Source: a virus
Lineage: Duplodnaviria > Caudoviricetes
Direction: 5' to 3' (one strand)
Length of the DNA stretch: 64,000 nucleotides
IMG/VR virus record: IMGVR_UViG_3300025735_000294
Location: 25,860-89,859 of that record
Part shown: positions 14,797-55,116 of the stretch, piece by piece
Numbering within the stretch: position 1 is the stretch's first letter
How the letters are laid out: each line of letters begins with the position of its first letter
Made by a program: the position numbers and the translations under genes
Notes under the pieces: generated by a model
The model's database searches: none
The model's input: the letters and a program-made list of their open reading frames with translations, nothing else
Told to the model about the DNA's origin: nothing

Positions 14797-17700
14797 TTGA
14801 ATCCAGTTAACGCCTTGCTTGCTTCCGCGACAAGCATGGATGAAATTCTTGCGGTAATAGCACGCCTTCATAAACCTCGACCGTTAGCAACATTCGGAGT
14901 CACAAAACGTGAAGGTGTGAGCCTTCAACGTGAGCGCCGTCAGGCTAACGATCTCGCGATAGAACTTTTGCAGTCCCTTCCACAAAACTTTGATGGAAAC
15001 CGGCTAACTGATGATCAGCGGCAGATCCTTGCCCGTTATTCAGGTGAGGGAGGTTTGAAAGGCAAAGAAGGGAGTCAGTACGAATACTACACGCCGCAAT
15101 TTATGGCTGAGGGTATTTGGGATCTCTTTGCTAATTACGGTATTAATGGCGGCCATATGCTTGAGCCTTCAGCCGGTACTGGCATTTTCCAAGAAACAAA
15201 GCTGCCTGGCGCCATAATAACCAGCGCTGAATTATCGCCATTGTCGGGCCGTATAAACCAGCTCCTACACCCTGAGGATGATGTACGCGTAGGGGCATTT
15301 GAAGATCTTGCCTCAAACGTACCGGATAACACATACGATCACGCCGTTGGTAACGTTCCATTTGGGGAAGGGCGCTCAGGAGTTGCCAGTAGGGACCCTG
15401 CCTACGCCAAAGAGATGAACGTAGGCAATTATTTTGTCCTTCGAACAATAGACAAAGTAAAACCAGGTGGCCTGGTCATTCTTGTAGTCCCGAACGGCAT
15501 GACCGACGGGACCAAAAGTAAAAAGTTGCGCGATAAAGTGAGTCGCCGCGCCGAATTCCTTGGCGCCCACCGCATGCCTTCTGGCACCTTCTCTGAGAGT
15601 GGTACAGATACCGTCGTTGATGTCTGGGTACTGCGTAAGCACCCTTCTGAGTTTGAAGATATATTGCGGGATTCCACAGATGCGCAGCTGGCCGGTGCCA
15701 ACGTGCTTTGGTCAACCTTCATAAAGGGTAAGTGGTTCTTGACCACTGAGGGGCGGCGTTTTGTTCATGGTGAGATGGAGCGGACTAATTACCAGAATAT
15801 GCTGGTGGTTAAAAGTGATGGCCGAGTCACAAACGCCGCGATGAAAACAGCTCTTTCACGCCGTTTTGATAGCCGTATTGATTGGGATTCTTTAGGCGTT
15901 GTAACTCCGGCGTGGCAGGGTGCAAAAGAAGGGGATCTTCGTATTGTTGGAGGCATTTGGCATAAATTTGATGGTGTCCGTTGGGTCATTGATGCTGAGT
16001 CATTCAGTCTTCATGTTGATGAAGCGCGTTATGGCGCGAAGACCCAAAGTGAACTCCATGCCAAAATCGGCAGTACCCAAGGCATCCTTTCTCTGACCCT
16101 TGAACAGATAGCGGCGATCGCCAATGACTATCCGAGCCTCATCCCTGACGACATGGCCTCATTGCTCCGGTTTGTGTTGAAGCAACGTAAGAAAGACCGG
16201 GAGAGAATCTGGCGTGGCTCAATCGTGGGGCTGAAGATAAACCGCGCGATGGATCTGCGCTCGCTTGGGCAAGAATTCACTGACGTTATGGCTGACGCAG
16301 CGCAACTGACTGCAAGTGAGATCGACCGATACGGCAAGCCAGGCGATGTTAAGTTGAAAGACCTTAGCGAAGCAGGTAGCCGCCACTGGCTAACCTTTGC
16401 GGGTAATGTAACAACTGATGGTAGCACCTCTGCGCTTCTTAATGGCCAGATCGACGTATCCGACGGCGCTGCAGGTATCGACTTCTCTAAACCAGATCAG
16501 GTTGTGGCCCACTTATTCAGTGATGTGGCCCTGGTCCCTGTTTCCCTTGCTGAATTCCGAGCGACGTTCGCCGGTGAACTCCCTGCTGACGATGATGCAC
16601 TACTCAACTGGTTAGCGACCTTCCCTGAAATCGCAATAGACGGCTTCGGCAACATCCTCCCTATGGGCCGTGCCGCCAGCGGCGATATCAAGTCCAAGGT
16701 TTCGGCGCTGGTGGCGCTTCTTGAAAGCGCCACAGGTGAGCAGAAGGCGAACTTTGAGCGTCAACTGGCCCTTATAAACGAGAAACGAGAGTTCACACCA
16801 CTGGATAAAGTAACAGTGAACATGAATGCTCGCTGGCTTGATCGTCGGCTCATAAAAGAGTTTCTCGCTGAGCAAGGGTATGACGAGTTCAAATACACCG
16901 AACCTGAAATGCAGATCGTGGATGGAGTTCTCGTTTCTGCTGATGACTATGACGGCAAGGATGGGGTGTTTACTGGCTATCAAATGCGAACCGTGTCGGG
17001 CAAGAACGGTAATGAATTCAAGAAGGCTAACAACAAAGATGGCTTCCTGAATCAGCTTGAGAACTACCTGAACGGGGTTAAACCGCGTGGGGTAAACGCT
17101 AACGAATACCTCGATAAGATTGCCGCGCTGGAGACGTCCTTCAACGACTGGTTACGTACTCATCCCAACGCAGAAAGCATTGCTAACGACTATAACGACG
17201 CTTTCAATGGCTACATCCCTTTCAGCCACTCCTCTGCTCCACTGGGATTAACCGGCATTAGCGGTAAACGAATTCCCCTTAGCTACCAAAACGAAGAGGT
17301 TCGCCGCCTATCTGAAGACGGTCGCGGTATTATGGGTTTCGGTACTGGGTTAGGGAAAACGACAACTGCATTGGCACTGGAAGCCTACAACTTTGAAACA
17401 GGGCGCACGAAGCGTACTTGTATTGCGGTTCCGAAGGCCGTGTATCAAAACTGGTATCACGAAGCTCAAGGCTTTTACAGCCAGGAAGCCTTTGCTGGAA
17501 TGCTCTTTGTTGGTCTGGATGAGGTGATGAATGAAGGGGGAGAAATTTCAACAGCGCCGGTGCTCGATGAGAATGGGGAGCCTCGCCTTGATAGTGCTGG
17601 TATCGCCATTTTGCGTAATGTCGTTAAAGAGTCCAGCAGCGCGACGGTGATTCAGCGTATGAACATGATCCCAACATCCAATTACCGAACGGTGATCATG

Positions 17701-23563: not shown

Positions 23564-23645
23564 TCCCCATCAAACCAGCGTTCGCTGGTTTTTTTGCGCC
23601 TTAAAACCTCCCATAGACAAACCAACATTTTCCAATAGAATATGT

Positions 23646-23672: not shown

Positions 23673-24944
23673 ATGAAAATGAGCACTGTTTTACCACAGC
23701 AAAAAGCCGTAACTGAGGATGTCTTAGCTGCAGGGATTGAAGCGCTGCGTAGCCAAATATCTCTCGCCATGAAGCGATCTGCCGGTGATGACCTTACCGT
23801 GAGACTTTTTGAGAGTGCATTGCTCTCACTCGATAACCTGGTATCGGCTATCAACATACGATTGGACGATTCGGTTGATGAGTTTAACCGGGTTGTTGAT
23901 CTGCTAGAACAGTATCAAGAAGACATGAACACTCATCATCTGGAGGTGGTCAAGCTATGTGGCTTGGAGATGGGGCCATATAGCGAGTTAGCCGGATTAC
24001 TTGCTACCAGGCTCGAAGACCTTAAAATTCAGGTCCAGCACGCCAATAATCGCACCGACGCCTCAATGCTGATGAACGACGAGCTTAGGCGTTCCTTCAA
24101 CAAGTATAAAAAAGACTACCCTGAAAGCCTCGTAATTGACCTGCGGAGCCGTGAACGTGATAACAACAGCTTGAAGCGTGAGCGCAAGGCGCTCAAAGAG
24201 GAGATAGCTGAGCTTGGAAAAAGCCTGAGAGAACATAAGAAGAAATGCGTTCATCTTGAAAGTGATAACCTGGCTCGTGCGAAGGAAATCCAAACGTTAA
24301 AGGAAAACGATTTAGCGTTGAGAGAAACTCTTGATGAATACAGCGGCATTCGGGACAAAGTGAAATGCTTCGATATCACAAAGAACGGTGGTAACGGAGG
24401 TTTTGCCTATATCTATAGCTACCCCTTTGGCCTGGCCGCCGATGTAGGCCGTCGTCACGAAGTCATTTTAACCGCGCGTTTCCACTTTCAGATCCGGACC
24501 AGTCACCTTCTGGCCATGGATGTGATCCCAACAATATGGGGAGCTCCGTTATACAATCGGCTGAAGGATTTCGAGGAGAATTGGAACACTGAAATCGATG
24601 AAGAGCTCCACCAAAGGATCATGATGAAGCTTGAGAAGAGCTTCCCTAAGCTGCATAGGCGTATCAGTGCTTCCAAAGTGGCGAGTGTTGACGAACTAGA
24701 TATGCGTCCCACTACGCTGGTGGTCCTTAAAGCACTGGGCTTTACGACCGTCTTCAATGTTGCATCTATACCATCTACTTTCATGCCTTCCATTGAAGGG
24801 TTAGACAAACAGATGGATGAGGAGATCGTTGCTTCGGTGCGCATGTGGGCATCCAAATGGGATAAACAGAACGGAATCGTCGAAGAGCTCTATGGCATGA
24901 AAAACACGGTAACAGGGCAAGTATTTTACAAAGCCAACAAGTAA
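23673..24944 (+). CDS. PmgS-like coiled-coil protein with a C-terminal alpha-CTD-like HhH domain
   Basis: 423 aa with a long coiled coil; size and position match P1 pmgS; C-terminal SVDELDMRPTTLVVLKALGFTTV. Confidence 0.55.
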   Translation: MKMSTVLPQQKAVTEDVLAAGIEALRSQISLAMKRSAGDDLTVRLFESALLSLDNLVSAINIRLDDSVDEFNRVVDLLEQYQEDMNTHHLEVVKLCGLEMGPYSELAGLLATRLEDLKIQVQHANNRTDASMLMNDELRRSFNKYKKDYPESLVIDLRSRERDNNSLKRERKALKEEIAELGKSLREHKKKCVHLESDNLARAKEIQTLKENDLALRETLDEYSGIRDKVKCFDITKNGGNGGFAYIYSYPFGLAADVGRRHEVILTARFHFQIRTSHLLAMDVIPTIWGAPLYNRLKDFEENWNTEIDEELHQRIMMKLEKSFPKLHRRISASKVASVDELDMRPTTLVVLKALGFTTVFNVASIPSTFMPSIEGLDKQMDEEIVASVRMWASKWDKQNGIVEELYGMKNTVTGQVFYKANK

Positions 24945-24997
24945 TTAGATTTAGTATCAACAATCTAATTGAATTATCCATTTAGCAGTGTTAAATT
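24945..24997 (+). promoter_or_regulatory. Operator dyad abutting the sigma70 promoter of the RNA cluster
   Basis: TTAGATT-N10-AATCTAA (24945-24968), then TTGAAT-17 nt-TAAATT with an extended -10 TG. Confidence 0.7.
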
Positions 24998-25454
24998 TCC
25001 ACACGTTCGCTGAGGTTGGTGGACAGGGAGGCGGGAAGGAACCCAGGTATATGCAAGCCACGGTCTTTCGCCCTTACCTGATCAAAATCAAATTTAAGCA
25101 TTAGATTTTGAATCCTCCCTATACACCACGCCTCAACGGACTGCTAATACATGGCATCGCCTTCCCCTTAACTGGGAGGATGGAAAAGCAGCCATTACAG
25201 AGATGACTACAGCTCATGCGCTAAGAACCTAGTTAATGAGTCAAATACAACGGGTCGTATTGTAGTCGTCTCTGCAATGGGAGTAGGACTAGCCAGCCGG
25301 AGGTGCTTTAACACCGGCAGTGACAGCGGATTAGTGCGATGAGCCCATACTCATCTTCCTCCTTAAACCAAAGAGGGTAATCGTATTCCCTGGCAACTGA
25401 ATAGGGGGAAGTCAGAACGGAAGCGATTATGATTCTTTGTTCCGTGATATCACC

Positions 25455-25540
25455 GTTTAGCCCGCGCTAAGGGCTGTTAAGTAAAGGAATGGAATTGCTG
25501 TGTGTAGTCTTTGCCCATCTCCCACGATGGGCCTTTTTTT
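25455..25540 (+). ncRNA. rprA: RprA-like small RNA (3' seed region and terminator); 5' boundary uncertain
   Basis: GAATTGCTGTGTGTAGTCTTTGCCCATCTCCCACGATGGGC plus a U-tract (25492-25540) matches the 3' half of enterobacterial RprA as recalled. Confidence 0.75.
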
Positions 25541-25632
25541 ACACCAGCCCATAACAGGTAAGAGCATTGAGAACCGCCGAGACTGACTGAAATAAAGTTA
25601 AGTCCGTGCAAACGTCATGCAGTGCTCTTCCC

Positions 25633-25758
25633 GTTGTGGTAATGCGGCTCAGCGCTCGTGGTAATTAGTGATGCCATTGCTTTTTCCTGTGGTTTGTATA
25701 GCGCCGCTGGTGGTTTTTCACTATCCCATCCAGCAGGGGGAGGCACCCCCGCCACAAC
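25633..25758 (+). ncRNA. tRNA-shaped/C4-like RNA module A
   Basis: GTTGTGG/CCACAAC closing stem; GCG-GCTCAG-CGC hairpin; GGGGG-AGGCA-CCCCC T-like arm. Confidence 0.65.
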
Positions 25759-25972
25759 GTTCTACAGTACAAAGGATCGAAACGGGTCGCCCTCCTAATG
25801 AGAGGAGTGTTTTGAGGAAGGTGAACGACAAGTAGCCCCTCCTGTCACGGCAGTGAAAGCGGTTGATGGCTTATCCCGCTCATAGAATGCCCCGTGAGGC
25901 TAAATAAATGCCCGCCTGCTCCCCGTTAACGGAGCACCACAATCAAAACGGGTGTTAGACGCTCTTTTTGAT

Positions 25973-26098
25973 TGTGGTGAATGCGGCTAAGCGCACGCGG
26001 GGAATTGGTTTTAAATTTGAGCTCCAGTTCATAGGTAAAAACTTCCCGTCCACGGTCTAAAGCCAGCCAAAGGACACCGGGAGGCACCCGGCACCACA
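25973..26098 (+). ncRNA. tRNA-shaped/C4-like RNA module B
   Basis: TGTGGTG/CACCACA closing stem; GCG-GCTAAG-CGC hairpin; CCGGG-AGGCA-CCCGG arm. Confidence 0.7.
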
Positions 26099-26369
26099 AA
26101 CCAACACCACGCCCGGAGACGGCTAAGTAACCTGAATGGCGAAACGTCAATGTACCTGAACCGGCAATGTGTGCCGAGGACGGAAGGCATATGCCGTGAC
26201 AGCCGAGAGAGTTCGGCACACAACAGAGTGAATCATTCTTGCCTCTGGTCCGGGATCGCGACTGGTGGGGGCGGGTAGCCACACAAGCCGTAACGCGAAA
26301 CGGCCCGAGTGGAGTTAAGCGAGGAGAACCTTATCGGGGAAGTGAAACCCTGGGGGGATGGTTCACCCT

Positions 26370-26499
26370 GTTGTGGATGTAGCTCAATTGGAACAGAGCG
26401 CCCCTGAAGGGGGAGTTGAGCGCTACCTAAGGATCATAACCCAGGGTATCTCATACGGTCCGGCCGGACGTTATCCGGGTTCAAGTCCCGGCACACAAC
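26370..26499 (+). ncRNA. tRNA-like RNA (module C) with canonical D and T arms and an expanded middle
   Basis: TAGCTCAATTGGAACAGAGC D arm; CCGGG-TTCAAGT-CCCGG T arm; bulged acceptor GTTGTG(GA)TG/CACACAAC; no 7-nt anticodon loop. Confidence 0.65.
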
Positions 26500-26701: not shown

Positions 26702-26806
26702 TGAGGTGAATCCCCCTAAGCGGCGGGGCATATCAGCTGCGACAACACCTTGCCAATGCGAGTTCCAATGCTGTGAGGAGCTCACCGGGAGGCACCCGGC
26801 ACCTCA
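26702..26806 (+). ncRNA. tRNA-shaped/C4-like RNA module D
   Basis: TGAGGTG/CACCTCA closing stem (compensatory change relative to module B); CCGGG-AGGCA-CCCGG arm. Confidence 0.65.
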
Positions 26807-26815
26807 AACTTTCAA

Positions 26816-26889
26816 GGCCCTTTAGCTCAGTTGGTTAGAGCAATCGACTCATAATCGACAGGTCGCTGGTTCAAGTCCAGCAAGGGCCA
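26816..26889 (+). tRNA. trnI: tRNA-Ile2 (CAT anticodon; ileX/P1 trnI-like); CCA not encoded
   Basis: Full cloverleaf GGCCCTT...CTCATAA...GCTGG-TTCAAGT-CCAGC-AAGGGCC-A, followed by TCA. Confidence 0.92.
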
Positions 26890-27053
26890 TCACCTCTCTC
26901 TACTGTTTTCAAATCACATCATCCCGCTGGTGGGCGTGCACCTCTCATAGAACACATACTCACTGATACCAAATCTAAACATAAACTTTTATGCAGTTAT
27001 TAAACGTTTCCTAACTACCTACAATACCGGCAGTGTTGGTTTTTGGAGTTGTT

Positions 27054-27734
27054 ATGAGACGGATAACAAGCATGCACATTGCTGACTTAATGCTGGAAGA
27101 AAATCGCTATATGTCGATTCCAGAGATTATGGCCCTCGCTAAGCAACGACACCCTGACCTCGACATCACCCGTTGCCAGGTAACAAACATCACGAAGAGT
27201 TTTGTTAACTCAAAGTATGCATCCTGCGACTTCAAAAACGACAGATATCCAAGGCTCTACAAGCTCTACTACCTCCACAATTACACCTTCAAACCGAGGG
27301 ATGGCATTGCCAGCTCCCACCGCCGGTTCACAAAATCAGAGCTCATATGCAGCCTAGAAGTTTCTGCTTTAATGCTCCGGGAACGTCGATTCTTGACTAT
27401 CACTGAACTGACGAAAATTGCGAAAAAAGAGTACCCGAGGTTCCGTGTAGAGCGCGGGCAGGTCATGAACATAGTGAGAGCCTTCGTTTCATCTAACAAA
27501 GCGCTCTGTGAGGTTGATGCAGATGCATACCCACACAGGTACTTTCTGCGAAGCCTGAACGGGTACAAGTTCAAAGTTCGCAACCGCGATGAGCACTTAG
27601 ACATTCACAATCTTCAAGCGCCTAGCAAAGCCTCCTGTGAGGTTTTAGAGCGGGAGCGACAATTACTCAGCAACTTAGCCAAAAACATCATGGATGATTC
27701 TGCACGCCGTCGTGAGGCAGCTTGTGGCAGATAA
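27054..27734 (+). CDS. lpa: Late promoter activator Lpa-like protein with a tandemly duplicated domain
   Basis: Directly upstream of pacA as in P1; two ~75 aa internal repeats; GGAG RBS. Confidence 0.6.
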   Translation: MRRITSMHIADLMLEENRYMSIPEIMALAKQRHPDLDITRCQVTNITKSFVNSKYASCDFKNDRYPRLYKLYYLHNYTFKPRDGIASSHRRFTKSELICSLEVSALMLRERRFLTITELTKIAKKEYPRFRVERGQVMNIVRAFVSSNKALCEVDADAYPHRYFLRSLNGYKFKVRNRDEHLDIHNLQAPSKASCEVLERERQLLSNLAKNIMDDSARRREAACGR

Positions 27735-29034
27735 GGTTGAATGGGATTGGCACCTTGAGAACTTCATACGCCAGAACAAAGAGCACAAAGTAACCATAGA
27801 GGAATACTGCCGCGCTTATGAACTCACATACAGCACTGGCAGAAAAAAACTCAATAAGAAACGTGCTGCTGCAGGGGATCACTTACCTAAAAGTACCCTT
27901 AAAAAGGGGGATCAAAAGCGAAATGATCCCCCTAAAAAGATCCCCCGTAACTGCAAAGGGGATCATCCAGAAAAAACCAATACGAATAATAGGTTAGATG
28001 ATGGGAAGGGGCGAAAAGGGGTAAGCAAAAGCACTCATTTGCCATCGAGCAGCGTCAAAGTGATCCCTAAAGATGGCGTTGTTCATACCAAAAAGCCACG
28101 AGGCGGTACTAGGTTTGCCAAAGGCAACGAGCTGGGGCTTGTCACAGGCATCGGCGGGACACCGCGAGAGCAGGACGTACAGGCTGCGCTTGAAGCCCTC
28201 AGCCAAGGCGATGATACCTATCTCTTTGAGACGATTTTACGGAATGAATCACACAAGAAGCTTGTCGAAAGGGCGTTTAGTCGCACCGCAGCGCGGTTAG
28301 AAGCTGAAATAGAAGCGATGGCTAAGCCCAAGGCCAAGGAGAAAGACGAAGAGCAACAATTCGGTCCACCTCCAGACATGGTGCTGCTGAAGATGGCACT
28401 CGAAGTCGGTTATTACTTCAATGACCACCAAAGCCGTATCGCTGCTGTCATCCAGGCACGCCAGAAACTCAACTTAGACAAAGACAAGAACCAGGCCAAG
28501 GCCCTGGCAGATCGCCGTAAGCTCAATACCGAAGATTTACGCCTCGAAATGCGCCAGCAAGAGTTGGCCGATAAGCAACATGAGCGCGACCGCACACAGC
28601 AAGCCGTTACTGACGCATTGCGTATGCGTGAGAATGACGAACTGGACGACATTGGAGTAGCGGAATACATCGAGGTCCTGGGGCTTAAGGTTCCGGCGTT
28701 CCTCGCAGCTAGAGCACAAAAAGCACTGGATGGGCTCGAGCCTCCTGTATCGAATGACAGCACTGTTGATGACGATCAGATTGAGCGAGAAGCTGAAGAA
28801 TACCGTCGACGTCGAGATGAATTACCGCAGGTGCTTGAAGAACGCCGAGAAGCAGTTATTGCCATGGTGGAACAGATGGGCCAGGGCGATGTCGATTTGA
28901 CTGGAGAGCGGAAAGCAGGGGAGTTTGAGGATGATGACCCTGATTTAGATTTAGACCCCTCAGCTACCGCCGATATTTACAATGAAGAGCCAGTAGAGAT
29001 CGCCATTGAACCGCCTGATGAAGGCGATGATTAA
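27724..29034 (+). CDS. pacA: Terminase small subunit PacA
   Basis: W..H..NF....TI.EY...Y.L...T.R N-terminal HTH, AE.IE..G.KVP motif and acidic tail as in P1 PacA; GTG with GAGG RBS. Confidence 0.85.
   Translation: MADKVEWDWHLENFIRQNKEHKVTIEEYCRAYELTYSTGRKKLNKKRAAAGDHLPKSTLKKGDQKRNDPPKKIPRNCKGDHPEKTNTNNRLDDGKGRKGVSKSTHLPSSSVKVIPKDGVVHTKKPRGGTRFAKGNELGLVTGIGGTPREQDVQAALEALSQGDDTYLFETILRNESHKKLVERAFSRTAARLEAEIEAMAKPKAKEKDEEQQFGPPPDMVLLKMALEVGYYFNDHQSRIAAVIQARQKLNLDKDKNQAKALADRRKLNTEDLRLEMRQQELADKQHERDRTQQAVTDALRMRENDELDDIGVAEYIEVLGLKVPAFLAARAQKALDGLEPPVSNDSTVDDDQIEREAEEYRRRRDELPQVLEERREAVIAMVEQMGQGDVDLTGERKAGEFEDDDPDLDLDPSATADIYNEEPVEIAIEPPDEGDD
27874..28067. other. Putative pac packaging site (GATCCCC repeats inside pacA)
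   Basis: Five GATC sites in 27877-27964 embedded in GGGGATC/GATCCCC repeats, and a sixth at 28062. Confidence 0.6.
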
Positions 29035-30548
29035 TGGCTTCAGGCAAGCATAAAATAAAATGCATTACTGACGATCCGCGCTGGCGCGAGCTGGCCGTCC
29101 GTTATCGCAAGGATTACATCTCAGCCATCATTTTCTTGTTTGGCATGATGCCTTCCCACCAGCAGGAAGAAATTATTGCCTCTGTGGAGGAGGTGGGTAG
29201 CCGAACAACTGTTACTTCAGGCCACGGTACGGGTAAATCATCTTTAACAGCAATGCTTTTGCTGATTTATATGATTATGTACCCAGACGCCCGCGTCATT
29301 ATCGTTGCCAACAAGATCGGCCAGGTTAAGACCGGTGTATTCAAATATGTGAAGCAGTATTGGGGCAACGCCATTAAGCGCCATGGCTGGCTCCAAAATT
29401 ACTTTGTGCTTACCGACACCATGTTCTATGAGCGCAGCCGTAAAGGGATTTGGGAGGTCCTGTGTAAGGGCTATCGCCTGGGTAATGAAGAAGCATTAGC
29501 CGGTGAGCACGCAAAGCACATCCTTCTGATAGTGGATGAGGCTTCGGGTATCTCAGATAAGGCGCTGAGCATCATGCGCGGCGCATTAACTGAAGAAGAT
29601 AACCGTATGCTCATGCTGTCCCAGCCGACGCGCCCGACCGGTTATTTCTACGATTCTCATCATTCCCTCGCGAAGAATCCTGATAACCCTGAAGGGATTT
29701 GGAACGCTATCGTCCTCAACTCCGAGGAATCTCCTTTTGTCTCCCTTAAGTTCATCCGTGAGAAGCTCCTTGAATATGGCGGCCGTGACTCGCTTGAATA
29801 CATGGTCAAGGTTCTCGGCCAGTTCCCAAGGGAGATCTCCGGGTATCTTCTGGGCCGGGACGAGCTCGACCGTGCGGCACGCCGCCGCGTTCTGCTGGAG
29901 GCAAACTGGGGATGGGTAGCGACCGCTGACGTTGGTAACGGTCGAGATAAATCGGTGCTCAATATTTCGCGAGTATCAGGTGTACGAGGGCTGAAGCGCC
30001 GTGTTGTGTCATTTAAGCTAACAGAAATGCCTGGCACAATGGACCCGCTCGCCTTTGGTGACTACATCTATAACGAATGCTATTCAGGGAAATACCCAAA
30101 CATCACAATTGCGGTCGACAGTGATGGTGTTGGGTATGACACGGCCACTCAGATCATCCGTAGAGGGGGTAGTGTGGTGCGAATTCGCTGGGGTGCTCAC
30201 ATGTTCTCAAAAGAGGATAGGGGCCGTTTCGTTAACCAGCGAGCCTATGCAAACATCATGGCCAGAGATGCTATTAAGTCTGGGCGCATGCGCCCAGATT
30301 CCTCGCAGAAAACCGCAGAGCAGGCGTCAAAGATACCCTACCTCCTCAACGAGGCGGGGCAGATAGCAATGATGAAAAAAGAGATCATGCGACAGAAGCT
30401 TAATATCAAATCACCCGATAGATGGGATACTTTTTGCTTTACGCAGCTGGTGGATTACGTTCCTGCGAATGAAGAGACCGGTTATGATGTTGCCAGCGTT
30501 CGTAATGAAGCGCTGGCTCTTATGGATACGCCAGAATTAGATTTGTAG
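29034..30548 (+). CDS. pacB: Terminase large subunit PacB
   Basis: Walker A SGHGTGKS, Walker B LIVDEASG, nuclease ADVGNGRD and SPDRWD. Confidence 0.95.
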   Translation: MASGKHKIKCITDDPRWRELAVRYRKDYISAIIFLFGMMPSHQQEEIIASVEEVGSRTTVTSGHGTGKSSLTAMLLLIYMIMYPDARVIIVANKIGQVKTGVFKYVKQYWGNAIKRHGWLQNYFVLTDTMFYERSRKGIWEVLCKGYRLGNEEALAGEHAKHILLIVDEASGISDKALSIMRGALTEEDNRMLMLSQPTRPTGYFYDSHHSLAKNPDNPEGIWNAIVLNSEESPFVSLKFIREKLLEYGGRDSLEYMVKVLGQFPREISGYLLGRDELDRAARRRVLLEANWGWVATADVGNGRDKSVLNISRVSGVRGLKRRVVSFKLTEMPGTMDPLAFGDYIYNECYSGKYPNITIAVDSDGVGYDTATQIIRRGGSVVRIRWGAHMFSKEDRGRFVNQRAYANIMARDAIKSGRMRPDSSQKTAEQASKIPYLLNEAGQIAMMKKEIMRQKLNIKSPDRWDTFCFTQLVDYVPANEETGYDVASVRNEALALMDTPELDL

Positions 30549-30553
30549 GTGCC

Positions 30554-31606
30554 TTAGCTATATTTGGCGTTACGAAGAGCTATGGCGAATGTTATGCCAT
30601 ATTTATCTTCGATAGACTTGCCATATTTTGTGCGCATAGCCTCCACCGTTTCCAGAGATGGATCACCGGCAGCAATCTTTACGTCAAACAGAGACATATC
30701 CATACCGTCGAGTAGTTCAAGGCTCTTCTTTCGGGCCTCTATTAGCTGATGAATTTTTTCCTTTGCTTCATCGTTGGCGGCAAGCGCTAAGCGCTCGGCA
30801 TACTTCGCCTCATAGCGTGAACGTCTCATGGTGATTACGCGTTGAATATAAGAGCGAAGCTTGGAATGAGCCTGCTCTCTATCGACATCCTCAACACGAT
30901 ACACCTTCATATCTTCAAGAACTGAACATGGTATTGGCTCTAAATAATCGTATACGGTGCTATATATGCCAGTGTGTTCATTTAATATCTCTATGTCCTT
31001 CGCTTTTAATGACTTAGAGTAAATTAAGATGCCATGCGCTCCGAAACGAGTGCGTTCATTATCGCCATCATGTGAAATAATGTCTAAATATGAATCGGTA
31101 TACCCAGTTCTACGGGCACGAAATTGAGTGCCTTCTGGCATATCAGAAAACCGTTTCTGTTCATTAATAAATACTTCGACTGAATCGGCGACGCCTGGAA
31201 TAGCAGATAGCTTTTTAATCATTCTCTCATAACGTCGAATGATATCTTCACGCATGTAAGTTGTTGTCGAGGTTGCGTCAGTCCTTGTAATTTTTACTAT
31301 CCCTTTGGGATCGTAAAAAATACTCGGCACAGGCGAATACATGCCAACAAGAATGGTCATTCGCTTACTTCGATTCTTTCGTAAATCAGTGCAATAATCT
31401 GCAAATTCCCGCCATTGATTTAAAAGAATTTCGGCTTTAGAAACCACTGCATCATCATTTGTTAATGCTGCTAACCGAAACTCAGTGCCTACGGCGTTAC
31501 GATCCGAATAGATTTTGTACTTTTTTGTTATGTCTGCCCATTCCTTGGCTACGACGAGGAATCGCTTGTAGCGTTCTTCGAAATCCATGTTCGATGCGCC
31601 GATCAT
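30554..31606 (-). CDS. c1: C1-like master repressor
   Basis: Y.PVPSI, FRARRTGY, YDYLEPI.C.....KVYR..DV align with P1 C1; lies between pacB and the lox-type site. Confidence 0.75.
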   Translation of the reverse strand: MIGASNMDFEERYKRFLVVAKEWADITKKYKIYSDRNAVGTEFRLAALTNDDAVVSKAEILLNQWREFADYCTDLRKNRSKRMTILVGMYSPVPSIFYDPKGIVKITRTDATSTTTYMREDIIRRYERMIKKLSAIPGVADSVEVFINEQKRFSDMPEGTQFRARRTGYTDSYLDIISHDGDNERTRFGAHGILIYSKSLKAKDIEILNEHTGIYSTVYDYLEPIPCSVLEDMKVYRVEDVDREQAHSKLRSYIQRVITMRRSRYEAKYAERLALAANDEAKEKIHQLIEARKKSLELLDGMDMSLFDVKIAAGDPSLETVEAMRTKYGKSIEDKYGITFAIALRNAKYS

Positions 31607-32057: not shown

Positions 32058-33086
32058 ATGGGTGAATTGATTTTGGCGGCAGATTCTCTCTTCCCTGCTG
32101 AACGTAATAGCAGTGAAGCCGAGCAACGCCTCAGGAACTTCCTGCGCGATCGCGAAGCTTACTCCGACAACACCTTTAGAGATTTGGTTAGTGTAATTCG
32201 AATTTACTCAGACTGGTGCCGCCAGCGCGGAGCCGCCTGGTTTCCTGTTGATGATGAGATGGCTCGCATCTACCTCATGGATATGTATGACAGTGGCCTA
32301 GCATCTACAACCGTAGATAAACACTATGCGATGCTTAACATGCTGCTCAAGCAAGCTGGATTGACAACCCTGGCTGAAAGCCAGTCCGTCACTCTCGCAA
32401 TGCGCAAAATCAGGCGAGATGCCGGTACTGGCGGTGAAGAACGTACAGGCCAGGCAATACCGCTCAGACTCGATGACTTACGACTACTGAATGTCCTGCT
32501 TTCGAGGTCCGGCCGGGCGGTTGATCTGCGAAACCTCACATTCCTCTTTGTCGCTTACAACACTTTGCTTCGTATCAGCGAAGTAGGCCGTCTGAGAGTG
32601 CGTGATCTTGAAATTGAAGGTGACAACGTAACGTTAAATGTATCTCATACCAAGACGATCGTCTCGGCTGCAGGTCTTGTAAAAAGTCTCTCTGCTATAA
32701 GCTCCCGTCTTGTCATCGACTGGCTGGATAAATCCGGACTGTCTGATCACCCTGAAGCTATCCTTTTCCCGCCGGTGCGAAAAAACGGAGCCGTGGCCAT
32801 AGTGGAAAAACCAATGAGCACGCCTGCTTTAGAGAAGATCTTTTCCGATGCCTGGCTTGAGTTACGTCGCGAGCCAATGCCAGTAAACAAGGGCAGATAT
32901 GCGACATGGACAGGCCACAGCGCTCGCGTAGGTGCGGCGCAGGATATGTCGGACCATGGCACCACATTGGTAGAGATAATGCGTGAAGGAACCTGGAAAA
33001 CACCGGCAACAGTTATGGGCTACCTCCGCAAAACCAAAGCTAACAAAGGAGCCATGTCGAAGTTGCTCGACGAGAAAGAAACATAG
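32058..33086 (+). CDS. dre: Dre/Cre-type tyrosine recombinase
   Basis: LASTTVDKHYAMLNMLL, ERTGQAIPLR, YNTLLRISE (R), HTKT (K), GHSARVG (HxxR), EGTW (W), MGYLR (Y). Confidence 0.93.
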   Translation: MGELILAADSLFPAERNSSEAEQRLRNFLRDREAYSDNTFRDLVSVIRIYSDWCRQRGAAWFPVDDEMARIYLMDMYDSGLASTTVDKHYAMLNMLLKQAGLTTLAESQSVTLAMRKIRRDAGTGGEERTGQAIPLRLDDLRLLNVLLSRSGRAVDLRNLTFLFVAYNTLLRISEVGRLRVRDLEIEGDNVTLNVSHTKTIVSAAGLVKSLSAISSRLVIDWLDKSGLSDHPEAILFPPVRKNGAVAIVEKPMSTPALEKIFSDAWLELRREPMPVNKGRYATWTGHSARVGAAQDMSDHGTTLVEIMREGTWKTPATVMGYLRKTKANKGAMSKLLDEKET

Positions 33087-50288: not shown

Positions 50289-50375
50289 CTTGTTTTATAT
50301 TCATTTCGTGGCAGCAATGCCACCGGGCGTGGAACCCCGAAAAAGTGAATAGCAGTAAAGCAGTGTCACATCACA

Positions 50376-50458
50376 ATGGTGGCACTAACAGAGAGGCTTA
50401 GCGGCCCATCGGTGATTCACGATTTCCGAAGTTCCAGCTCTGTTAGTGCCGCCGCCAT
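50376..50458 (+). ncRNA. C4/CI-type antisense RNA hairpin of the immI-like region
   Basis: The long stem GGTGGCACTAACAGAG/CTCTGTTAGTGCCGCC encloses TTCC(A/G) motifs complementary to the GGGCGTGGAA(C/A)CCCG sites at ~50326 and ~50720. Confidence 0.55.
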
Positions 50459-50495
50459 CTTTTCCAGGCGGCTCCAGCAAAACACGGAGTGACGA

Positions 50496-50666: not shown

Positions 50667-50963
50667 ATCTAACTGTCTGTAGCGTTTATGATTTTTTTAC
50701 CGTAGCAAATTCTACGGACGGGCGTGGAAACCCGGATTAAGCAAAAGGCGACACAGACGCCATAGCGTCTTTTTTTGTGTCCTTCACTATGCACACCCAT
50801 ATTCGGTAATACGTATAGAATCTATGGTGACGCTGGTGGGGCCGACTTCGGTCGGGCCGGTACCCTTTTGCGCCGGTATTTCCACCCCCATCAGCGTCAC
50901 CGCCATATTGAGCGTGGAAACTCAGGCGGTGGCCCTTCTAAAGCAAAAGAAAGGATGCCACCA

Positions 50964-54517: not shown

Positions 54518-54669
54518 ATAGCACTGTATTATACTAATATCGCTAAGAAGATAAGTTTCCCACGCTGCTACTAACTGACTTCCAACCAGTCGGTACCAGA
54601 AATGAACCCCGCCATCCAAGCGGGGTTTGTGCTATCTGGGATATAGAACGCGAACGCTAAAACAGATAA

Positions 54670-54698
54670 AGAAAAGGCCCCTAATCAGGGGCCTTTCT
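54670..54698. terminator. Bidirectional terminator
   Basis: GAAAAGGCCCC-TAATCA-GGGGCCTTTC. Confidence 0.7.
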
Positions 54699-54700
54699 CG

Positions 54701-54820
54701 CTACTTGCCAGTGATTGTAATCGACACATTCAGGGAGTTGTCAGTAATCTTCCAACCCTCTCCTTGCGGCGCTAGCAATGCACCAGTAACAACGATAAGA
54801 ACACAAATGTAATTCTTCAT
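54701..54820 (-). CDS. Possible 39 aa hydrophobic peptide
   Basis: MKNYICVLIVVTGALLAPQGEGWKITDNSLNVSITITGK ends exactly at the terminator; weak RBS. Confidence 0.35.
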   Translation of the reverse strand: MKNYICVLIVVTGALLAPQGEGWKITDNSLNVSITITGK

Positions 54821-55116
54821 TGTAAGGTCTAAACAGACCGTTTCACGGCATATTCACCGACGAAAATGACGCGAGAGCAAGTGCTACCAGCACTTGCGAG
54901 TACGGCAATGGATAATCCTTCCCAGAAGTCGGTGCCCGTTTGCGAGACGGCGAAAAGGTCCGCTGGCATTGTACCGCGAATAAAACTGAAAATTATAGGA
55001 TTCCCACAAGACAATCTGAACTTTAACTTGTTGTAGATCTGATAGTTGTGAACGTTACTAAGTTAATTTGAATACAGGATTATGGGCTTTGTGGTGGGTA
55101 CTGTTGTTCCCAGGGG

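Follow-up and report, generated by a model that had tools for sequence, protein, structure and literature searches.

The 3′ part of the host small RNA RprA in the pmgS-lpa interval of a P1-like phage-plasmid

Why does a P1-like phage-plasmid carry the 3′ end of RprA, a core envelope-stress small RNA (sRNA) of enterobacteria, and what could such a fragment do there? To our knowledge, phages have been found in only a few cases to encode sRNAs which mimic or counteract regulators of the host (DicF, StxS, AgvB/AsxR, and KilS). Here, the locus was studied in a stretch of 64,000 nucleotides (nt), termed the window, which represents positions 25860–89859 of the viral record IMGVR_UViG_3300025735_000294; coordinates refer to this window unless stated otherwise. 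The record comprises 89,859 bp with terminal repeats, and the genes around the site are of the P1-like phage-plasmid type, in agreement with the label given in a previous sequence-only reading of this DNA. They include a PmgS-like gene (23673–24944), the genes for Lpa (27033–27734) and for PacA and PacB (27694–30548), a leftward gene in the position of P1 c1 (30554–31606) and the gene for a Cre-like recombinase (32058–33086). Within the interval of 2.1 kb between pmgS and lpa, no credible open reading frame (ORF) was found.

It is in this interval that a string of 41 nt is present on the plus strand (25492–25532), which is identical without any mismatch to nt 58–98 of RprA from E. coli K-12 MG1655 (41/41) and is followed by one C and seven T. 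The sequence-only reading had described it as the 3′ part of RprA plus a U-tract, which is confirmed by this alignment. With up to three mismatches allowed, the string has a single match in the window, and a chance resemblance to RprA is ruled out, since none was expected from 100 dinucleotide-preserving shuffles. BLAST searches matched the annotated rprA in 5,424 of 5,426 complete E. coli genomes, at 98% over 25492–25541. The Rfam model of RprA (RF00034), which had been suggested as a check, scored 66.1 bits with an E-value of 1.9e-8 in a search of 601 nt. This score lies below the gathering threshold of 70 bits, at which the window contains no match. The high-posterior alignment is confined to the 3′ half of the model, and it is the conserved RprA 3′ region (nt 60–83) together with the terminator that is present in the window copy.

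The 5′ half of the host RNA is missing. Upstream of 25492, no similarity to the 5′ stem-loop and the central rpoS-pairing region of RprA (nt ~1–57) was detected, and a search for the rprA promoter or the RprA 5′ half returned a best local alignment of just 13 nt. What precedes the copy is a small hairpin (25458–25476, plus strand; stem 25458–25463 with 25471–25476), and its description as a 5′ hairpin unrelated to RprA was correct. Furthermore, rprA of MG1655 (annotated at 1444–1551 of the reference locus L124) is flanked by ydiK and ydiL, and the window copy is located between pmgS and lpa and not in this locus with its Rcs-dependent promoter. Because the rprA promoter has been lost, a control independent of Rcs, as claimed before, is plausible.

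Which part of RprA has been copied? A processed form, RprA60-105, has been described (Mika et al., 2012, PMC3465796), and RprAproc, the last 47 nt of RprA, is regulatory by itself (Brosse et al., 2022, PMC9262595). Judged from the sequence, the copied part corresponds to this RNase E-processed form, so that the short 3′ RprA species invoked in the sequence-only reading fits the window copy. Here, the GAAUU at 25492–25496 (plus strand) is identical to E. coli RprA and has the sequence context of the RNase E site that yields RprA60-105, with A25494 representing RprA nt 60. This A opens the seed AUUGCUGUGUGUAGUCUUU (25494–25512, plus strand; RprA nt 60–78), which is the stretch predicted to pair with csgD and dgcM and is unpaired in the local fold. 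The seed is followed by an intrinsic terminator (25513–25541, plus strand) with a 7-bp stem GCCCAUC/GAUGGGC, a 6-nt loop and the C plus U7 tail, which the terminator scan identified as the first plus-strand terminator 3′ of pmgS. The element displays the features of an Hfq-type sRNA, namely a Rho-independent terminator, a U-tail of at least six residues and a U-rich single strand before it, which suggests that its RNA would depend on Hfq.

The module is shared by many mobile elements. Exact matches to its 22-mer core TTGCTGTGTGTAGTCTTTGCCC are present, together with a terminator, in at least 120 IMG/VR contigs, and among the IMG/VR matches listed 58 different upstream contexts occur, none of which contains the canonical RprA 5′ half. 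The position directly before the 22-mer, which lay outside the search pattern, is occupied by an A in 76 of 77 distinct phage copies, and the base preceding this A varies. Conservation begins at the A equivalent to RprA nt 60, which is the 5′ end of the processed RprA60-105 (PMC3465796). The seed is invariant across the phage copies, and the downstream hairpin persists with a drifting sequence: in 37 aligned copies 91% of the terminator-stem cells are paired, and one A-U pair is changed to G-C in 14 copies, so that the variation of the stem includes compensatory changes. The best-conserved part of the module is the 19-nt single-stranded stretch. The family is characterized by a conserved 5′ A, this 19-nt single-stranded seed and an Hfq-type terminator.

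Using BLAST with mismatches allowed, the module was detected in the induced E. coli phages Eeyore, Flotzy, LLS, and vB_EcoM-606R2. In the Rac phage it is located upstream of kilR, which is the site of KilS. The lambdoid copies examined are flanked by the gene of a CI-like repressor and by early recombination genes and are not adjacent to int. Also a lytic phage, the N4-like Erwinia phage Ea9-2, carries the complete seed and terminator right after thymidylate synthase (L127, locus 395–445), and in Erwinia and Dickeya jumbo phages the match is limited to a core of 18–25 nt. Approximately 780 plasmids, mostly large conjugative IncFIB plasmids of Klebsiella, match the RprA core. One of these, the Klebsiella pneumoniae IncFIB plasmid NZ_CP028791 (L129, locus 590–650), harbors the core with one base changed, TAGCTGTGTGTAGTCTTTGCCC, together with a terminator of its own, flanked by a small ORF and by a toxin-antitoxin pair of the RES-Xre type. 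A literature search returned no paper linking RprA with phage or plasmid copies.

The terminator of the window copy equals that of E. coli, which raises the question whether it was taken directly from a host. The 3′ flank ACAC..AACAGGTAAGAGCA (25542–25571, plus strand) provides the answer. Approximately 30 nt of this flank are common to the window copy and other phage copies (BLAST alignments extend to 25566–25571), and the flank of E. coli rprA is unrelated. Because of this common flank, the window copy appears to belong to a phage-borne lineage, and an independent recent capture from the host is unlikely. Also the junction GAATGGAA before the seed is found in another phage type (L122, 5342–5423, minus strand; L126, 60–170); the 23-mer of this junction has two matches in IMG/VR, both from this phage type, and none in species genomes. 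In these phages a plausible promoter (TTGAAC, 16 nt, TAACTT) is located just upstream of the seed, from which, by its sequence, a short RprAproc-like primary transcript would plausibly be made.

What can the copied part do without the remainder of RprA? In the host RNA, rpoS pairs with nt ~30–60, csgD site II with nt 28–45, csgD site I with nt 60–97 and ydaM (dgcM) with nt 45–75 (PMC3465796). For the seed core and csgD −97..−83, termed site Ib by Mika et al. (2012, PMC3465796), the duplex calculation yielded 15 contiguous bp with −24.2 kcal/mol (z −6.4; reached by 0 of 300 shuffles), and at the level of computation this bears out the csgD targeting expected by the sequence-only reading. The pairing with dgcM +3..+13 comprises 11 bp (E −15.8, z −3.1; 0 of 100 shuffles). 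Both computed pairings fall on the sites mapped by Mika et al. (2012). Activation of rpoS, which had also been claimed, has to be rejected: the rpoS-pairing region is missing and the duplex computed for the window element and the rpoS leader does not exceed those of shuffles (z −0.4). A CCCCUGA motif, which precedes many lambdoid copies, showed no significant rpoS pairing either (z −0.7). The loss of RprA nt 28–45 further means that csgD site II, which is needed for translational inhibition (Mika et al., 2012, PMC3465796), cannot be bound.

A target inside the phage was considered as well. Within the window, the only complement to the seed elsewhere is partial (15083–15100, plus strand, three mismatches) and lies ~290 nt into an ORF of 2,291 amino acids (aa), which looks like chance. 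Since Erwinia phages have retained the core as well, its conservation may be due to a target other than csgD. The window copy itself most likely represents a phage-encoded version of processed RprA, with csgD and dgcM and not rpoS as its targets.

The surroundings of the element differ among the P1-like relatives. Phage P1 lacks the RprA-like module. It is present in the same pmgS-lpa island of two plasmids, one from Enterobacter hormaechei (L002) and one from E. coli (L123). A search for related loci via PmgS returned no relatives. In the two plasmids the RprA-like end is attached to a scaffold resembling the sRNA STnc100. The window contains the same scaffold downstream of the copy (25619–25758), where BLAST against both plasmids, the terminator scan and the hairpin motif show that it continues into a different seed and terminator (25792–25815), the complete unit spanning 25619–25815 on the plus strand. 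The RprA-like end of the window is located on a different, unique leader. From this comparison of sequences, 3′ modules have evidently been exchanged between scaffolds.

Two further STnc100-like RNAs are present at 25972–26103 (38.5 bits) and 26702–26806 (61.8 bits), of which the former also has a counterpart in P1, since P1 70069–70200, between upl and tciA, matches 25961–26100. All three scaffolds have in common a closing stem, a CCGGGAGGCACCCGG-type hairpin by the 3′ strand and a tRNA-like layout, and one of them directly precedes a tRNA-Met (26816–26889). A search for this hairpin motif in the HK022 immunity region, which is a weak probe of any link to put RNA, gave no match. Additionally, a tRNA look-alike with D- and T-arms and an insert of ~50 nt is found at 26373–26497, where the tRNA model scores 24.8 bits and thus below the cut-off; its counterpart in the E. 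coli plasmid (L123, 3353–3481) has been annotated by PGAP as a tRNA-Met of 129 nt.

How might the copy be transcribed? A motif WTTAGATTTnGnATC occurs at 18 sites in the window in comparison to 6.6 ± 2.8 expected, a number reached by none of 100 shuffles. Its 15-nt sites include those at 23645, 24944, 25100, 26965, 31762, 33091, 33992, and 50250, and the motif precedes pmgS, lpa, and c4, follows cre and is also found close to the start of the gene in the c1 position. Three sites form dyads, namely 24944 with 24956–24970, the one at the start of the c1-position gene and the one after cre. The C1 operators of P1 lie at the same kinds of places. By sequence and placement, these sites are probably the C1 operator set of this phage, which is unlike the P1 consensus.

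One of the dyads, ATTAGATT..AATCTAAT (24944–24970), is a putative site for a C1-type repressor directly after the stop codon of pmgS. It overlaps a candidate sigma-70 promoter (24969–24997, plus strand) with a −35 box TTGAAT, a spacer of 17 nt ending in TGn and a −10 box TAAATT, for which the start is predicted near 25004. This promoter matches the consensus at 8 of 12 positions plus an extended −10 and was missed by the consensus scan, whose threshold was 9 of 12. A second perfect copy of the operator-like motif lies inside the predicted leader (25100–25114, plus strand). The window copy thus probably sits, as read from the sequence, behind a promoter that is gated by the phage repressor.

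The leader itself (25005–25491, plus strand) is predicted to be a strongly structured RNA and contains no plus-strand ORF of at least 40 aa, and the terminator scan revealed no earlier plus-strand terminator between ~25005 and 25541. The leader with the RprA-like end (25005–25545, 541 nt; ~535 nt of leader) folds with −199.6 kcal/mol in comparison to −158.7 ± 6.7 kcal/mol for shuffles (z −6.1). In this full-leader fold the seed is paired with 25143–25156 at a probability above 0.95 and AAU at 25493–25495 is open. The duplex of the seed with 25143–25156 ranks in the 4.9% tail of random segments and is not clearly better than chance. In the model the seed may be masked in the leader, or the pairing may merely be structural. 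The leader matched no Rfam family and had no homologue in the phages, plasmids and IMG/VR data searched; a 19-mer scan of IMG/VR gave one match, in an unrelated coding sequence. An internal similarity between 25230–25500 and 25795–25975 was weak and was dropped.

These observations are best united if the window element belongs to a family of processed RprA copies carried by phages and plasmids, and if it ends a repressor-gated leader and its released RNA acts on csgD and dgcM; the probability of this reading is put at about 0.6. Here, a non-coding leader of ~535 nt would start at the promoter overlapped by the C1-type operator dyad and would be made mainly once repression is lifted. Transcription would stop at the RprA-type terminator, and cleavage at the conserved GA|AUU would free an RNA of ~47 nt identical to the host RprAproc. 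The freed RNA would pair with site I of the csgD mRNA and with the beginning of the dgcM coding region, by which regulators of curli and matrix would be lowered independently of Rcs or Cpx signaling; the RNA would be incapable of activating rpoS. By this route, the sequence suggests, the phage may silence host biofilm regulators without a stress signal of the host.

A more far-reaching version of this reading is tentative and somewhat doubtful. Here, RprA60-105 would be a portable cassette of Enterobacterales phages and conjugative plasmids that supplies the first terminator downstream of repressor-gated or early promoters. When such an element is induced or infects a cell, its earliest transcript would then deliver an anti-csgD/dgcM RNA that shuts down the production of curli and matrix, a barrier to phage spread, and bypasses Rcs and Cpx, and in the present phage this RNA would be released by RNase E from a masked precursor of 535 nt.

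Nevertheless, the same sequence could be mainly a terminator or attenuator, which closes the late transcript of pmgS or the repressor-gated leader. In such a portable terminator cassette the trans-acting RNA would be a by-product, and read-through may extend into the STnc100-like RNAs that follow, the tRNA and lpa. The position of the RprA-type terminator as the first on the plus strand after pmgS would fit, as would the location of the cassette in the early-left leader of lambdoid phages. However, it is the 19-nt single strand upstream of the stem, dispensable for termination, that is conserved best, and the stem is what drifts. Furthermore, conservation starts at the 5′ end of the processed RprA, and a role primarily in termination is accordingly regarded as unlikely. 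Less probable still is a decoy or sponge that titrates Hfq, RNase E or an RNA binding the RprA 3′ region, or a seed that only provides the 3′ strand for the helix closing the leader, a large structured RNA which would then have some other function. A sponge-like or indirect route has indeed been proposed for the effect of RprAproc on narP, for which no direct pairing was found (PMC9262595), and both the pairing of the seed with 25143–25156 at a probability above 0.95 and the z-score of −6.1 for the leader are compatible with a structural role. On the other hand, this duplex is not clearly above chance (4.9% tail), and other phages carry the same seed on quite different 5′ parts.

That the copy is the remnant or core of an attachment site, for which the rprA 3′ end was used like a tRNA gene and copied in attP, and that it was acquired by recombination without any RNA function, is very improbable. 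The identity spans the whole terminator, as it would for an att core. Yet a search of the whole genome of 89.9 kb with PF00589 found no integrase adjacent to the copy and gave one match only, the Cre-like gene, which is located 6.5 kb away beyond pacAB and c1. The distance of this sole tyrosine recombinase and the presence of the module in lytic Erwinia phages make an att origin unlikely. The copy moreover lies in sense orientation in an RNA operon, and the lambdoid copies examined adjoin repressor and recombination genes and not int.

How does a phage-borne processed RprA compare with known systems? With RprA (RF00034) it has in common nt 58–98 and the U-tail, and thereby the processed 5′ end, site Ia/Ib directed against csgD, some of the region pairing with dgcM, and the terminator. 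In contrast to RprA, it lacks the 5′ stem-loop, the region for rpoS pairing and csgD site II, the rprA promoter and the ydiK-ydiL synteny, its model score stays below the cut-off (66.1 against 70), and it is encoded by a phage-plasmid at the end of a leader of 535 nt. KilS is an sRNA from the kilR 5′ UTR of the Rac prophage, which has been seen in Northern blots and by RIL-seq (Bar et al., 2021, PMC8175672). This prophage RNA contains the same core ATTGCTGTGTGTAGTCTT upstream of kilR but has its own terminator and flanks and is lambdoid, not P1-like; RprA is not mentioned in that paper.

The layout of the window leader is paralleled by the ban leader of P1 (NC_005856), where a "dicF-like region" and tRNAs lie downstream of Pban, which is under the control of C1. 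Both are P1-family leaders, repressor-gated (in the window by prediction) and largely non-coding, with an sRNA look-alike, tRNAs and STnc100-like elements. There, DicF has been copied and the leader precedes ban, whereas here it is RprA in the pmgS-lpa interval. For the Stx phages, StxS has been reported as an sRNA that is transcribed from a phage promoter up to the first terminator, is processed by RNase E and acts on an RprA target (PMC7547250). By prediction from its sequence, the window element would share these features. StxS differs in that its sequence is unrelated and it activates rpoS, and the window element is without the rpoS-pairing region. The prophage sRNAs STnc100 (RF02076)/PasD represent another link, since the RprA-like end is found on an STnc100-like scaffold in the two plasmids with the pmgS-lpa island and in many lambdoid phages; in the window it is detached from this scaffold and placed on the unique leader. 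The preprint on Pas/STnc100 does not mention RprA.

With this element, a phage-plasmid has been found to carry an exact copy of the processed, active portion of a core envelope-stress sRNA, and the module also occurs in many temperate phages, in some lytic phages and on large conjugative plasmids. Provided that it is expressed, the csgD/dgcM branch of RprA regulation, and hence curli and biofilm matrix, would be triggered routinely by mobile elements in the absence of envelope stress, with the rpoS branch left out. The module thereby connects phage induction with biofilm physiology in a way that is directly testable. Furthermore, it is a natural experiment on RprAproc acting alone, a question left by the narP study (PMC9262595).

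Further RNAs of the window were recognized by Rfam above the cut-offs, which are isrK (50699–50775) and two C4 antisense RNAs (50372–50459 and 50820–50907), all on the plus strand, as well as ryfA on the minus strand (54669–54963, 154.6 bits). The ryfA-like RNA on this phage-plasmid may be another host-type sRNA or a toxin locus.
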